A DNA stretch of 61,749 nucleotides, counting the filler, from Globobulimina sp. (Eukaryota): the NCBI GenBank assembly GCA_003354225.1. It is 27 parts of 27 records of this genome, joined end to end, with 100 filler letters (N's around TTAATTAATTAA, not from the genome) between each part and the next. Parts side by side here need not be neighbours in the genome. Positions count along the whole stretch, not along the records: positions 6,879 to 9,070 come from PIVH01008290.1; positions 9,171 to 11,362 come from PIVH01008291.1; 25 more parts are not named here. One strand, 5' to 3'. Position 1 is the first letter of the stretch. The number at the start of each line of letters is the position of its first letter. The notes beneath the pieces are model-generated. The model was not told the DNA's origin and ran no database searches. It saw nothing but the letters and a program-made list of their open reading frames with translations. Both the position numbers and the translations under genes were made by a program. Positions 4,587 through 29,693 of this stretch are shown here, in pieces.

Positions 4587-5520
4587 GAGATCGATGCCGT
4601 CGCTGAGAGCGAATGCATTTTATGTTGCTGGCTTTGACGCAGAAATAATAGCGAAATGTACATTATATTTACTGTTTATAGGCCGATTATACAACCGGAA
4701 TTTCCAAAAAATATATAAATATTCGCGCACATTACTCTATGTCTTGTGGTGTATTGTATTTCTAATTTGTGCCATGGCAGCAACGATTTCCGCATTATTT
4801 GGAATATATTTCTTTTCTCCGCAGTACGATTTGCAGCTTGGCTCCTTGCAGGATATCAATATAATGTATATCTGTTCCATTGCCTCCTTTGTTTTGATGG
4901 ATGTTATATTGTCAATAATTACCTTATATCTATTCATTAAGCCTTTGTGTAGTTATTATCCATTACTTGTTTTGCCCGACGATGCAATGCGAGCATCATT
5001 ATTTCCGCAAACAATTAAAATGAGGAAACAGATTAAAAAGTATTGCATATTGAGCAGCATTGCCATTATCTCATCGACAATTTTTGCACTCACTGCGATG
5101 GGCAGAGAAATATTCAAATTTGATTGGTTCATCACTGGTAAATTAAATGACGACATTTATTCAATTATTTCAAACACTTTATTGCAAATTGATAGTGTCA
5201 TCTCTATGAATTGTATTTATTTTGGATTTGTGAATAATAGCTATTCATGGCTGACAAAGGCAATTTCAATGATGTTTTGTTGTGAATGTGGTAAATGCAG
5301 TCAATGTGCACAGGATTGTTTATATGTTTATTGTATGTGCCCTCATGGCAAACATAATAAATATTATTTTGAGAATGTGTCCACGGGGAGACAGCACAAA
5401 ACAAAATCAGGAGCAGATGAGCAAAGTGATATGGATACTGATAAAAATTCGATGTTGTTAAAGGTTTCGGCAAATAGCTTGCAACAAACACTGCCGCTTG
5501 TCTTCGAAAATATATATTGA
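4587..5520 (+). CDS. Multi-pass (7TM-like) membrane protein, 5' partial
   Basis: Several hydrophobic helices and a Cys-rich tail; same architecture as 22921-23992. Confidence 0.55.
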
Positions 5521-5789
5521 AAACAAATTATGTGTTTTAGACAGTTTGTTATGTATATGTTTATTAAAGAGTTAGCGAGACTTTTCTGATTATTTGTGTT
5601 GCCATTATGCAGATTTGCAATTTATGCGTTTTCTAGTGTCTTTCTTTCGACTTTATTACCATGCATTATACAGCAAATATCCCTATCATTTCAAGTTATA
5701 CATCCTATTAAATCAATTTCAAAGTTTGTTACATAGAATAATAAATACTTACAGCAATTCTATGGATTTACAGCGCAGCAGGATGCCAA

Positions 5790-6395
5790 ATGACATTGAC
5801 AGGATATACTCCACGGAGCACGTCCGATGATGGATGTAAAACGTTAGCAATAATATGTTCGGCAGGAAATGAACGGTGGGATATAGAAGGCTGTGGATGT
5901 GGTTGCAAACCGGATTGTGTGCGATTGGGCGATACATACTTTGGTAACTTTGAAACATGTCAAGCAAATATAGCACGTGTTTCATGTCCAGGAGAAGGAC
6001 AAGAATTTTGGTCTGATGACAAGTGTGGATGTGGTTGTACTTCGAATTCAGGTTTGATATTCAGATTGATATAAATAAATTGTTTCTGAAGAAAATAAAT
6101 ATTTATAGGCATAGCTGCAGATATTAAGGAAGAGGATATAAACTATTTTGGATTTATAAATTTTGATATGAATAGATTTGCAATTTATGAGTTTATATTA
6201 ATGATCTTTATTTTAATGGCATTTGTATTAAATGTAACATTTGTTAGTTATTTCTGTGTGGTAAGATTTAAAGATTTGGATTATTCATTTGTTAGCGATA
6301 TAAATCGGAATAATAGACATAAAATATTATATACAAAAACAGCAACAGATTGTTCTGACGATGACACATCTTTGGAGAATGTGTTCGATTCATAA
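5790..6395 (+). CDS. Small Cys-rich single-pass membrane protein (probable intron about 6052-6109); start uncertain
   Basis: Two CGCGC motifs; downstream exon has a TM helix. Confidence 0.4.
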
Positions 6396-6878: not shown

Positions 6879-7120
6879 ATGTCAGTAAAAATTAACCGAT
6901 TAAAATTACGATCCCTTTGGAACAGTGAGTACACCATTTTTATTACTCAGATAATTGCTATAGTTACCAAGTACAAGCCCGAAGTATTAAACCTTACAAA
7001 AGCCTTTGGTAAGTTGACCAAATTTGTACCCGAGTTAGCAAAAATTAAAGCACAAGAGCTAGGCAGTGCCCTTAGCAAATTATTACTTAATTTAGATAAT
7101 GAACGCGATATTTTGTTTGA
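6879..7120 (+). CDS. N-terminal fragment of a bacterial DUF6261/HagB-like protein fused to the retroelement (probable chimera)
   Basis: KINRLKLRSLWNSEY...LDNERDILF pattern; RT similarity in another frame begins at about 7121. Confidence 0.5.
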
Positions 7121-8092
7121 TGCTATTGTGGGGCAATTAAAGAGAGAACTGGGAAGACGGTATACTGGTCAATTGATGGTGGTCTACAGGCTCTAGCTAA
7201 AGTGCAAAGAATGGGGAACAGATTACAGAGTGTGCAAACTGCGGACTTCAGCACATTATTTAAAAGTTTTGATCATACAGTTATCAAACAGCAAATTTTC
7301 AAATTATTTGATATGTGTATGCGTAATTCTGGGAAAGCATATGTAGTGGAAGGGAAGCGCAATTTATATTATTCGTCAGCACGGGTGGAGGACTATCTTT
7401 CATTGGAATCAACGGAAATTAAAGAACTAATATCCTATATCATTGATGAAACTTATGTTAAATTTGGACCCTGGATGTTTAGACAAACTTGCGGTGTACC
7501 CATGGGAGGAAATGCATCCCCTACCTTGGCGGACCTTACTCTCAGCATGCTGGAATACAATTTCCTATCCAAAAAAGAGAATCAGCAGGTTGCCAGACGC
7601 ATGGGGAATACAGTACGATATATTGATGATATATTAACTATGAATTTTGAGGATCTAATGGATGTAGCTGCACAGATTTATCCTCCCTCATTGCCTTTGG
7701 AAATTACATCCGCTAATTTTGGTAAATGTGATTTTTTGGACATGACTATTACATGTGGTAATAATGCATATATTGCTGTATATAATAAAACGGATGACTT
7801 CAACTTCAATGTTATTAGATATTTATTCGCTGACAGTAATGTTCATAGTAATTTGGGGCTACAGGTTTATCAATCTCAATTGCTTCGTTTTCTCAGGATT
7901 AGTAATCGCTTGAATAATCTTATTAGCAGAAATAGGGAATTGTTTTTCAGTTTGGTTTCCAATGGTTTTAACAGATTTGATTTGATTAATTGCTCATTTA
8001 AATTCTATGAACGACATAAAATGGAAATACTCAAATTTGGTCTAACAGATAATAAAGAGATAGCACGTTTTATCTGCACTTTTACAAATTAA
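7121..8092 (+). CDS. Reverse transcriptase (C-terminal part) of a Penelope-like element, Naiad/Chlamys-like
   Basis: Frame open from 7121: YCGAIKERTGKTVYWSID, ADFSTLF, QTCGVPMGGNASP, RYIDD, IYPPSL, FLD, YNKTDDFNF, SNVH..VYQSQLLRF; no C-terminal GIY-YIG domain. Confidence 0.88.
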   Translation, partial: CYCGAIKERTGKTVYWSIDGGLQALAKVQRMGNRLQSVQTADFSTLFKSFDHTVIKQQIFKLFDMCMRNSGKAYVVEGKRNLYYSSARVEDYLSLESTEIKELISYIIDETYVKFGPWMFRQTCGVPMGGNASPTLADLTLSMLEYNFLSKKENQQVARRMGNTVRYIDDILTMNFEDLMDVAAQIYPPSLPLEITSANFGKCDFLDMTITCGNNAYIAVYNKTDDFNFNVIRYLFADSNVHSNLGLQVYQSQLLRFLRISNRLNNLISRNRELFFSLVSNGFNRFDLINCSFKFYERHKMEILKFGLTDNKEIARFICTFTN

Positions 8093-8141
8093 AAATTTGC
8101 TCATAGTATTAATTTAGCAGGTAAAATACTGCCCTATTTAA

Positions 8142-8433
8142 AAGCTGTATACCTAGCTGGGGGTATACATTGCCCAGCTTAACCAGTAGTTCAATAGCCG
8201 GTATACTTCGCTGGGAGTATATCCTCAATGGCATTACCAGTTGCTTAGTAACCTTTTTGGTTGAAATGACAATGTGACGTCACTTGGCGTCTTACATATT
8301 AATTTGACGATTCCTTAGCATGACTTCTTAAGCAGTAGGCCTAGCTGGGGGCTTACTTTAATGCTTAACCAGTAGTTCAATTGCCGTACACCTGGCTGGG
8401 AGTGTACATATCATGGCTTACCAGTAGTTCAAT
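8142..8433 (+). repeat. Four ~52-nt structured repeats (8142-8195, 8197-8247, 8329-8381, 8383-8433)
   Basis: Consensus GCn-stem-(N)GCTGG loop-stem-variable-nGC-TT(A)ACCAGTAGTTCAAT, with compensatory stem changes. Confidence 0.9.
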
Positions 8434-8719
8434 ATACTGTAGATTTACTACATGGCGTCAGCCTGATGCCGTTGGTATTGGTTTTACGAATGGACGCACA
8501 AACCCAAAATTGCACGTAATCGACTGTTTTTGATTAAAAATTCGCAAAAATTTGGTTATTACGAGCAAAAAGTGATGATAACAAGAAAACCAGTTTCTTA
8601 AAGACCGTCAAGACGAAAAATTATCTGCGGTAAGAAATTCAGTCTTCTCATAAACGCTTACTTTTTTATTCTGATTTGGTTTCGGCTGTTTTGTTTTTTG
8701 TATATTTTTCAGAATTGCC

Positions 8720-8872
8720 ATGGGTCGTGGATATGGTCGAGGAGGTCGAGGAGGTGGCGGTCATGAGAGAGGAGGTCAAAGAGGACGGGGTGGTGAGCAT
8801 GTTGGACGCAGGCAGCAGCTGAACACAAATAAAAGATCCCGCCGGGAGTATACTCCAGTTAGTTTATTTTAA
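8720..8872 (+). CDS. RGG-rich micro-ORF/first coding exon (MGRGYGRGGRGGGGHERGGQRGRGG...)
   Basis: GCCATGG start context just after putative intron 8630-8712 (GTAAGA...TTTTTCAG); GTTAGT donor at 8858. Confidence 0.6.
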   Translation: MGRGYGRGGRGGGGHERGGQRGRGGEHVGRRQQLNTNKRSRREYTPVSLF

Positions 8873-8949
8873 GAGCGTTTAAATAACTATGTTTTATTAT
8901 ATTTATAATAACGTGTTATGTGGTGTAATTTTCGGTAGCTATTTTTAAT

Positions 8950-9043
8950 GGTTTATTGGTTTCTTCTGATGAAGGTCCCGCCAATAAACCAGCAGGTCTA
9001 CTAAAAATTGAGTCAAGAAACAGGGACCGAAACTCAATTTTTA
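8950..9043 (+). ncRNA. Hammerhead ribozyme, non-circularly permuted
   Basis: CTGATGA 8966-8972, GAAA 9029-9032, GTC 9012-9014; stem I 8959-8965/9015-9021, stem II 8974-8979/9023-9028, stem III 9002-9013/9032-9043. Confidence 0.88.
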
Positions 9044-9685
9044 TTATTATTATTTTATGCTACCTGCAGTNNNNNNNNNNNNNNNNNNNNNNNNNNNNNN
9101 NNNNNNNNNNNNNNTTAATTAATTAANNNNNNNNNNNNNNNNNNNNNNNNNNNNNNNNNNNNNNNNNNNNTGACCATGGGTGGAGAGACAGTCCTTTTTA
9201 CATACATCTAACTGGGGGAATGCATTTTTCTCAATAATGAAAAGTGTCCTATTATTCCTAACAGGGCGACAGTCTGAATGCGGATTTTTAAGATCGATTT
9301 GCTAATCTACTGGACTGTGTAGTAACTATATAACTCTACTTTTCCTAGTGGCAGGCATTTCCTGTATGTATACATCCAAATGGGTTAAATTCCACTGTAC
9401 CAACATAAATGAATGAAATGGCGGATACAAAATTCAATATAGTAGCACTGCGGCGTCCCGCTAGCTACTTTTTGGACACTAGCTGGTGGAGAGACATCCG
9501 TTCATTCCGATCAGGCATATCCAACACCTTAGACGCCCTTAATGGACCAGCAAGTTCACGGATTACTCTTCCTTAGCATACACCTGCTTTATTGCGTCAC
9601 ATATGTTGCCAAATTAATTTTAAATAGTGATTAGCCAATGCCCAACGACTCAGTTGATACCAAGGCACACTGAGATCACCTATCA

Positions 9686-27402: not shown

Positions 27403-27502
27403 NNNNNNNNNNNNNNNNNNNNNNNNNNNNNNNNNNNNNNNNNNNNTTAATTAATTAANNNNNNNNNNNNNNNNNNNNNNNNNNNNNNNNNNNNNNNNNN
27501 NN

Positions 27503-29693
27503 TCTGCTTTTGTTTCTTCTTCTCATGTCTATTCTTTGCTCCATTCTTGATCCGGTCGATATTGTTCTGATCCCTTGGTGATAAATGATCAGATTCATCA
27601 TCACTGTCTTCTTCGTTCTGCTGAAGTCCCGGCATCTCTGGCCATGCTGCTGCATAACTAGCAGATGTGCATTTAGCACGTGGTCGTCCCAATAGTTGTT
27701 TTTGACCATACAGAGTCATTGTAGAATCCGCAAAATCGAAACCAACTTGATGACATTGCAAAAAATCTGTACCCAAGATAACCAAGGGTAGACGAGAATC
27801 GTCTGGCACCACATGTACAGTTTGTTCAAAAATTTTATCACCGATGGCAAAAGACATAACAACTTTGCCCAAAATATCAATAGAACCCCCAAAACCGGCC
27901 ATTTTTTTATGATGACAACTACGCAATTCGGACATAGGAATGCGGGCAAATTTACATACAGCTTTTTGTGCGATAGTCAATCCAGAGCCGGTGTCGGCCA
28001 ATGCTGCTAATTTGCATACTGGAACACGCTTCCGAAGTAAATAAAGCGCTAACTCCATTGGTTGTAATACAATAACAGAGTTATTATCAACATCTCCTTC
28101 AGGCACAGCGGTCAACACTTTAGCATTTATAGTATCTTCATTTAACCGATTTGGCCGCACTACACATGGCTCTGGTACTGGGGAAACAAGTTTATGGGTC
28201 ACCCAATCATTGTTGGTAGACTCAACTACTTCGGGCAATACAGATCGATTATTTTGCATCATGGTTGATTCAGATGCTAAGGGTGCATGTACCCATACAG
28301 GTTGATTATTGATAGTCTTACACCGTTTGTTCTCATATATACTACTTTCAGTGTCTGTCTGTATGTCACCCATTGCACCCATACATTCGCCAGTCATTTG
28401 TTTATAGCACAACCCAAAATTATCAATTGGTTTAATTACATCATTTACTGTGCTAGGCGTACCCGGTTCTACTTTAGGTGTTTCCATAAACTCTTTCTCG
28501 AGTCTTGCCACCGTTTCGTTATGATTATGTATTTGTATTTGTGTCAACATTAATGCTACCTCAATTTTATGTTTCTCATACCTTTCGTCCTCTTTGCGTG
28601 ATTTTTCACTCCAAAATGTCCAGTTGTCATAATCAAATTTCAAATCAGGGTAATCTGAATTTGGTATCAAATTGGGTCCAAATGTAGGCAGATTATCCCA
28701 ATTTTCAATTGGATATGAACGTCCTGTCTCGATGGCAAATTGATGTAAGTAATCGGTATATATCATTGGTCCTTGTCCTTTACCACCTTCGCAGTCTATT
28801 AGATTCCATTGAATTCTGGCAATTTCTTCTTTTGTTTTAGCCAATTTTTTTCCACTTTCTTTCACTACTGTACCAACATATGAACTTGACCACGCTGATC
28901 GTCTCCTTGGTTGTTGCTGACTTGATTGTGGTTGATCTACACTACGATTCTGATTTTCGGGACAGTCTGGACGCCAATGTCCTGTTTTATGACATGTATG
29001 ACATACATACCCGGCTCCTGGCGGTCCTCTGGCTCGTGAAGAGTTTCTATTGTTATTGTATAGTCGACTTCCACTATTTCTGGATCGGTAACGTTGATTG
29101 TCCTTGGCTGCTTGTTGTACTGAGTCGCCCATATTCAGTGTAATTCGCAAAATTCGTTCTTTTTCCACTTGGCAGATTTCTTTGTCATACACATTTGGAA
29201 AGTATGTCATTGTTTGCATACCCAAATACCTGGCTGCATTACCTAAACTACCATCCAAACAGTACGAAACAACAGTGTAAACGTCACCTTTACTCAGAGG
29301 TTTCAATCGTGCCACTAAATCCTGTGCTGTCACTGGATGTCCTGCTCTGGCGTTGTCCCATACAAACTTAACTATTTTCCTGGCCACTTCCGACGCAATG
29401 AGTTTGAAGTCCTTGTCTGACTTGAAAACCGTTGGTGATTTTGAATCCTCTGTTATGGAGAATTGTTCCTTCATTGGCGCGGCTGTGTCAACACTGACTG
29501 GAAAAAGAGAATGTGATTCGTATGCAATAGTATTATCTTCAACAACAGCACGAATGCCCACTGGTCGTCTCGATGTGGCAATGGGAAGGTCCGGACTTGT
29601 CTGTACTGTGTTTGTAATTCGCTTGGCCATACAAGTCCAATTCGGTTTGTCCATTCCAGATAAATATTGTTGACACGTTTTGAGATCTTCTCT
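27503..29693 (-). mobile_element. LTR retrotransposon gag-protease polyprotein, open at both contig ends
   Basis: CHTCHKTGHWRPDC knuckle, ALADTGS active site, ILGTDF. Confidence 0.85.

Follow-up and report, generated by a model that had tools for sequence, protein, structure and literature searches.

The hammerhead ribozyme can be divided into three blocks, C (stem I, CUGANGA, stem II), S (stem III, cleavage site, stem I) and G (stem II, GAAA, stem III), whose circular orders give type I (CGS), type II (GSC) and type III (SCG), and whose non-circular orders are SGC, CSG and GCS (Eckert et al. 2023, PMC10085705). Type CSG has been described from two similar sequences (named CSG-1 and CSG-2) found in metagenome DNA only and with modest covariation, in which a helix draws stem I close to stem II and which both cut at the expected site during in vitro transcription (PMC10085705). 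The main text of that article gives no genetic context for either sequence and contains no occurrence of 'reverse transcriptase'. Here, a 61,749-nucleotide stretch of DNA from the Globobulimina sp. assembly GCA_003354225.1 (the whole stretch is referred to as the window) was found to hold what is very probably a type-CSG hammerhead at the 3′ end of a 5′-truncated, Naiad-like Penelope-like element (PLE), belonging to the PLEs with an N-terminal GIY-YIG domain.

Canonical PLE hammerheads are of type I (C-G-S), possess a palindromic helix III of 1–2 bp and are thought to act as dimers; they frequently carry a nucleotide between A9 and position 10.1 and have a conserved G10.1-C11.1 pair (Cervera & de la Pena 2014, PMC4209133). 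The Naiad and Chlamys clades of PLEs have been reported to lack canonical hammerheads, with relaxed type-I descriptors having found none, and the same study lists 'HHR_core' cases and eight 'HHR_half_core' cases, in which CUGANGA lies in the 3′ untranslated region (3′UTR) and GAAA is 35–50 nt away (Craig et al. 2021, PMC8557442).

The ribozyme motif of the window occurs on the contig at 6879–9070 (PIVH01008290.1), which stops 27 nt past it (Table 1). A first-pass annotation of the DNA had proposed an intact core surrounded by three perfect Watson-Crick stems with the strands in the order A-C-B, and all of the pairs were confirmed, with 7 bp in stem I, 6 bp in stem II and 12 bp in stem III, the last consisting of 11 bp (9002–9012/9033–9043) and the pair U9013-A9032 (positions 16.1-15.1). 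Each of the defining core nucleotides (C3 U4 G5 A6 N7 G8 A9, G12 A13 A14 and H17 after U16.1) is present, the cleavage triplet is GUC (9012–9014), one extra A separates A9 from G10.1, and cleavage is predicted 3′ of C9014. The A-C-B order corresponds to C-S-G, such that the topology, which the annotation suspected might already have been reported, is that of the published type CSG (Eckert et al. 2023): the blocks run C, S, G from 5′ to 3′ and an extra helix (the clamp) joins stems I and II. Both the order and the 12-bp stem III depart from the canonical PLE minimal hammerhead, with its C-G-S order and 1–2 bp palindromic helix III. The expectation that standard covariance models would miss this fold was borne out, as the Rfam hammerhead models (types I, II and III, HH9 and HH10) had no match in the window at the gathering score and none in positions 8600–9071 at E ≤ 10, a result to be expected because the block order is a non-circular permutation.

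A strict descriptor that allowed all six block orders and required at least 4 bp in each stem matched the window once, with stems that add up to 25 bp. Among 200 block shuffles of the window, 39 contained at least one match (59 matches in all; largest, 21 bp). Weak look-alikes are not rare by chance, one as strong as the window motif was not seen in the shuffles, and by sequence comparison the decisive support for the motif is that offered by its relatives.

These relatives comprised 90 loci related through their reverse transcriptase (RT), 80 from metagenome contigs and 10 from genome contigs labelled as metagenome-assembled genomes (MAGs), and with the window they formed a search space of 369,753 nt, covered on both strands. 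The strict descriptor gave nine matches in this set, eight of which were CSG on the RT strand, compared to 1.56 matches in all orders and 0.2 in CSG order per shuffle over 50 block shuffles of the same set; a type I, II or III order was found in none of the eight compact RT-strand matches. Using a compact relaxed descriptor for the CSG order only, the search for A-C-B hammerheads near related RTs that the first-pass annotation had recommended yielded ten complete copies (the window, L001, L004, L005, L008, L011, L048, L066, L082 and L083), all on the plus strand and with no CSG match on the minus strand. The complete motifs are located 323–1061 nt beyond the end of the RT match, on the RT strand; in the window, the distance from the truncated RT open reading frame (ORF) is ~870 nt. 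A looser descriptor (stems of at least 3 bp, one mismatch allowed) was abandoned in favor of the compact one, as its long-range matches were as noisy as the shuffles.

Five additional copies (L003, L063, L009, L006 and L081) are incomplete or variant. Those of L003 and L063 are interrupted by the contig end. The copy at L009:3410–3489 is an L008-like ribozyme in which C15.2 has changed to A, so that it loses a pair kept unchanged by all ten complete copies, and is probably decaying. In L006, the linker between blocks S and G is long and stem I is displaced by one base. In L081 (4923–5070 and 1–36), an insert of ~30 nt, folded as two small hairpins, separates A9 from the stem II strand and lies within the clamp, and this arrangement is seen in two tandem units. 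If the L081 variant is active, 'block C' could be interrupted, contrary to the assumption of Eckert et al. A long-range strict-descriptor match in GCS order in L081 was rejected as chance pairing, the locus holding instead the CSG variant with its insert. A covariance model (R1) built from stem III only, using a MAFFT alignment (A3), recovered L009, L003 and the two L081 copies, and beyond those copies nothing convincing; a candidate at L049 (R1, E = 0.077) was discarded, as it has CTGACGGA in place of CUGANGA and no matching stems.

Phylogenetically, the copies are confined to one part of the RT tree (FastTree, local support only; window and 90 loci). All 15 of the complete, partial or variant copies fall within the 25 loci on one side of a branch with 99% support, and none within the other 66.

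The stems of the ten complete copies covary, which is what the first-pass annotation had asked of homologues. Canonical pairs account for 47/50 in stem I, 49/50 in stem II and 67/70 in stem III, percentages that are inflated because the copies were selected with a pairing descriptor, and both sides have changed at 14 of the 17 positions (stem I, 5/5; stem II, 4/5; stem III, 5/7). When partner strands were swapped between sequences, 48–68% of positions were paired and none of 10,000 permutations reached the observed counts; when the partner strand was slid by 1–2 nt, 29–54% were paired. Positions were anchored on the hammerhead core for these counts, because the position of block S is wrong for three of the ten sequences in the MAFFT alignments A2 and A3, an error that R1 reproduced. 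The core nucleotides are kept in all ten copies, as are the pairs G10.1-C11.1, A15.1-U16.1 and C15.2-G16.2, while the triplet is GUC in nine and GUA in one, and an extra nucleotide lies between A9 and G10.1 in four (the window and three others). Weight that is independent of the pairing descriptor is provided by the clamp, the strand, the position, the restriction to one clade and the shuffle rates.

The clamp was not requested by the descriptor, but is present in all ten complete copies (6–14 bp; median, 11.5 bp), compared to a maximum of 8 bp across 182 further CTGANGA sites of these sequences. This test was restricted by position because a helix search without that restriction gave so high a background (mean, 8.1 vs 11.8) that it could not serve as a control. 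The annotation had further proposed that extra helices take the place of the usual loop contact. For the clamp the proposal holds up, its retention in every copy fitting a part in holding stems I and II together, but the outer helix is no feature of the family, with at least 6 bp at its position in only three of the ten copies and a mere extension of stem III in L004 and L066.

The 3′UTRs of the ten loci are mutually unalignable, with the best local alignment falling inside the ribozyme in 6 of 45 pairs and all scores at noise level, and the shared structure is thus not due to recent shared sequence. For L008 and L009, the only close pair, the RT DNA is 60–85% identical and the 3′UTRs cannot be aligned, while the ribozymes are identical at 101 of 108 positions, and the similarity ends ~15 nt beyond stem III.

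The assignment of the element to the PLEs, also made by the first-pass annotation, was upheld by homology. An open frame at 7121–8092 (+) encodes 323 residues that include RT motifs and match RVT_1 weakly, and an exhaustive search with the ORF returned 267 representative proteins at E ≤ 1e-30. Full-length homologues have 800–1050 aa, of which the 323 residues represent the C-terminal third; the ORF matches residues ~605–1033 of 929–1041-aa proteins at 37–44%, and in tblastn searches with five full-length homologues the same residues corresponded to window positions 7106/7124–8074, with no homology to those proteins 5′ of 7106–7124. Because homology begins only there, the window copy is 5′-truncated and so non-autonomous, and the truncation explains why GIY-YIG is lacking in the window. 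The consensus RT motifs (PKLHK..PY.FR.IAGA, DFSTL, G.PMGGN.SP and RYIDD) are those of a PLE-type RT, an N-terminal GIY-YIG was found in seven of eight full-length homologues tested, and the hammerhead-bearing loci L082, L083 and L081 (more weakly L011) carry GIY-YIG and RT in one ORF. At the 5′ boundary, a contig from run X1 departs upstream of 7127 and a contig from run X2 covers 6907–7121, such that 7121–7127 is either the junction of the 5′ truncation or an assembly join.

Naiad elements are marked by an N-terminal GIY-YIG, a CxC motif, DKA (rather than DKG), and CX2-5CxxC and CCHH in the endonuclease (Craig et al. 2021, PMC8557442). Among 14 full-length relatives, the 80% consensus includes C....C..C, Y...C..C..QY.GET...H...HF....H, C.C and ADKA.NN, and these relatives have CX4CxxC and CCHH-like residues in the nuclease, together with CxC and, upstream of the RT, ADKA..NN. 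Judged from motifs read by eye, the family is Naiad-like. Features of the RT relatives that are shared with the published description of Naiad and Chlamys PLEs are the N-terminal GIY-YIG with CX4CxxC and CCHH-like residues, CxC, DKA, the C-terminal RT, head-to-tail copies and 5′ truncation. Head-to-tail copies are evident in L082 (1–589 vs 5276–5859, 91–100% identical; period, ~5273 nt) and in L081 (1–103 vs 5008–5110, 98% identical; period, ~5007 nt), and the ribozyme is present in each tandem unit. The close relatives are all from metagenome contigs or MAGs with bacterial labels, and these labels are probably binning artefacts.

The end of the element appears to coincide with the ribozyme. 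In contigs from the one sample that contains the window sequence, depth increases from ~5 over the ORF to 15–30 over the ribozyme, and in Logan contigs from run X1 other copies diverge, as loose ends, at 9041 and 9043. This pattern fits many 5′-truncated copies with the element end at the end of stem III, and the element probably terminates at or just past that stem.

Table 1. Features of the PLE remnant and its predicted type-CSG hammerhead, in window positions.
Feature	Position	Strand	Details
5′-truncated PLE ORF remnant	7106..8092	+	C-terminal ~320 aa; RT motifs DFSTLF, GVPMGGNASP, YIDD; stop codon 8090–8092
Element 3′UTR	8093..8948	+	short internal repeats; RGG-rich mini-ORF 8720–8872
Clamp helix 5′ arm	8950..8959	+	perfect 10 bp with 8981–8990; 12 if G-U pair added
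Block C	8959..8979	+	stem I 5′ strand 8959–8965 (GTTTCTT), CUGAUGA 8966–8972, extra A 8973, stem II 5′ strand 8974–8979 (GGTCCC)
Clamp helix 3′ arm	8981..8990	+	partner of 8950–8959
Outer helix 5′ arm	8992..8997	+	perfect 6 bp with 9062–9067; window-specific
Block S	9002..9021	+	stem III 5′ strand 9002–9013 (U16.1 = 9013), C17 = 9014, stem I 3′ strand 9015–9021 (AAGAAAC)
Linker, stem I strand to stem II strand	9022..9022	+	single A
Block G	9023..9043	+	stem II 3′ strand 9023–9028 (GGGACC), G12 A13 A14 = 9029–9031, stem III 3′ strand 9032–9043 (A15.1 = 9032)
AT-rich (TTA)n-like tract and contig end	9044..9070	+	

As the motif sits at the extreme 3′ end of the element, and retroelement 3′ ends are often protein-recognition structures, it might represent a structured 3′UTR element with the shape of a hammerhead but no cleavage, such as a structure for RT recognition or priming. 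This is considered unlikely. It would agree with the finding that insertion by a canonical PLE in vitro is unaffected by hammerhead mutants (Frangieh et al. 2024), but the catalytic-core nucleotides are kept in 10/10 diverged copies while the stems vary freely, which points to a catalytic constraint and not to mere shape, and both of the published type-CSG RNAs cleave. Cleavage only between molecules or between neighboring units, as a dimer or in trans, would be in keeping with the dimeric action proposed for canonical metazoan PLE hammerheads and with the tandem arrangement of the relatives; this has a still lower probability, as the dimer types have a palindromic helix III of 1–2 bp, compared to 12 bp in the window and an uninterrupted 4–15 bp in the relatives, and the three blocks lie within 73–102 nt and are held in cis by the clamp. 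That the motif is a look-alike arisen by chance, or the dead and rearranged remnant of an ordinary hammerhead, can be set aside with near certainty, for although weak matches arise in shuffled sequence and the element copy is truncated, the strongest shuffled match falls short of the 25 bp in the window, and nine other complete copies repeat the order, strand, position and clamp with different stem sequences, which refutes it as far as sequence evidence goes.

A cis-acting type-CSG hammerhead remains the favored reading, and beyond the selection of copies by pairing several points weigh against it. Self-cleavage of the window motif is predicted from sequence, among the sequencing runs listed none is recorded as RNA, and the published CSG examples are slow, with observed rate constants (kobs) of 0.004 and 0.026 per min (PMC10085705). 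Since G8959 is common to the clamp and stem I, one terminal pair has to be given up, and together with the 1-nt linker this may cost 1–2 terminal pairs. In the hammerhead clade, 10 of the 25 loci do not have the motif; eight of the ten have <800 nt of 3′ flank, and in L014 (1191 nt of 3′ flank) and L084 (3188 nt) no motif was found. Given that the mutants of Frangieh et al. did not affect insertion, any role of a PLE hammerhead in biology is still putative, and as the window copy is 5′-truncated its ribozyme may serve nothing now.

The nested minimum-energy fold takes a two-hairpin form in nine of the ten copies and reaches −34.9 kcal/mol in the window (z = −4.2). From this, we infer a folding path in which two hairpins would form first, one closed by the clamp, with a 21-nt loop of stem I strand-CUGAUGA-A-stem II strand, and one formed by stem III, with a loop of UC-stem I strand-A-stem II strand-GAA. 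Pairing between the two loops would then create stems I and II and with them the normal three-way hammerhead core, while the distal ends of stems I and II would join the clamp in a second three-way junction. The clamp and the 1-nt linker would tie these distal ends and so replace the usual loop-loop contact. A cut after C9014 would produce element RNA whose 3′ end is GUC bearing a 2′,3′-cyclic phosphate, along with a 5′-OH fragment beginning at 9015. Where elements stand head to tail, as in the relatives, read-through transcripts could be cut into units, as proposed for canonical PLE hammerheads, and by this analogy the most likely role is the cutting of read-through or tandem transcripts to unit ends.

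Compared by description, the hammerheads reported here share with CSG-1 and CSG-2 the block order, two core pseudoknots, a helix uniting stems I and II and a source in DNA only. Product sizes are similar, with 48–49 and 29 nt for CSG-1 and CSG-2 (including flanks), while the sizes predicted here, counted from the clamp start, are 46 and 27 nt in L001 and 66 and 29 nt in the window. Unlike CSG-1 and CSG-2, there are here ten complete, diverged copies tied to a retroelement. A likeness also exists to the described type-SGC hammerhead HRIMA-1 (PMC10085705), in which the stem I strand joins the stem II strand through a short linker (typically 3 nt there, 0–9 nt here) and a helix ties the remaining two strands, and type SGC with a direct link of stems I and II is active. 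HRIMA-1 differs in its S-G-C order and in its origin from metatranscriptomes, beside hairpin ribozymes, whereas the present copies are from DNA, beside an RT. With the canonical PLE hammerheads, as published, the copies share a place in the terminal non-coding region, the sense strand, the G10.1-C11.1 pair and, in some copies, a nucleotide after A9, and they differ in the C-S-G order, the long stem III, the clamp helix and a build for folding in cis. In contrast to the reported 'HHR_half_core' cases, the boxes, here 40–57 nt apart, form a complete permuted hammerhead.

In the searchable literature (subscription journals and supplements lie outside it), 'type-CSG' was found in Eckert et al. 2023 alone, and among papers naming both 'hammerhead' and 'Naiad' none was found to describe a permuted hammerhead. 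A type-CSG hammerhead in a Naiad-like PLE is a context that was found unreported and appears to be new. The extra nucleotide after A9, together with the fixed G10.1-C11.1, may point to an origin shared with the ordinary PLE ribozyme. It is tentatively suggested, at a little under even chances, that type CSG represents the 'missing' ribozyme of Naiad-type PLEs, invisible to descriptors for types I–III, that the 'HHR_half_core' cases and CSG-1 and CSG-2 belong to the same family, and that the permutation arose within the PLE lineage from the ordinary PLE hammerhead.

Until now, the case for non-circularly permuted RNA folds relied on the well-supported type SGC and on a type CSG of two sequences. 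Type CSG now has ten diverged natural copies, with covariation in the three core helices and the clamp, and a probable genetic home at the 3′ end of a retrotransposon. This offers a concrete answer to the remark in the transposon literature that the PLEs of the Naiad and Chlamys clades multiply although they lack hammerheads. Were cleavage to be confirmed, the hammerhead would be a more general trait of PLEs than has been assumed, and searches of mobile elements would need descriptors for all six orders.

Several smaller features of the element and its relatives were recorded. Just past the RT stop, a short unit (~13 nt core, with similar flanks) occurs in several copies at 8130–8450 (+), and between the stop and the ribozyme a 50-codon ORF at 8720–8872 (+) is rich in RGG/GRG repeats and has no Pfam match. 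The 3′UTR of L082 contains two 96-nt direct repeats (L082:4227–4427, 77% identical), and a 218-codon ORF upstream of the main ORF of L082 is repeated in the next tandem unit. Some of the more distant relatives with GIY-YIG and RT (P0125, P0127 and P0139) possess, at the C-terminus, an additional ubiquitin carboxyl-terminal hydrolase domain (PF00443, E = 2e-29 to 4e-10), reminiscent of the protease domains that have been reported for certain Chlamys and Dualen elements.

The window itself consists of 27 contigs of 2189–2193 nt each, ordered by size, with each junction filled by 44 N, then a 12-base AT linker and a further 44 N. As the contigs were joined artificially, 'genes' on either side of a linker are not genomic neighbors. 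On the other contigs, no Pfam family was assigned (E ≤ 1e-5) to five of seven long ORFs, and a sixth contained PKD domains. A 735-aa ORF at 27447–29654 (−) carries a zf-CCHC zinc knuckle (PF13696, E = 2e-6), and the Globobulimina assembly may include further contigs that are eukaryote-like or derived from mobile elements.

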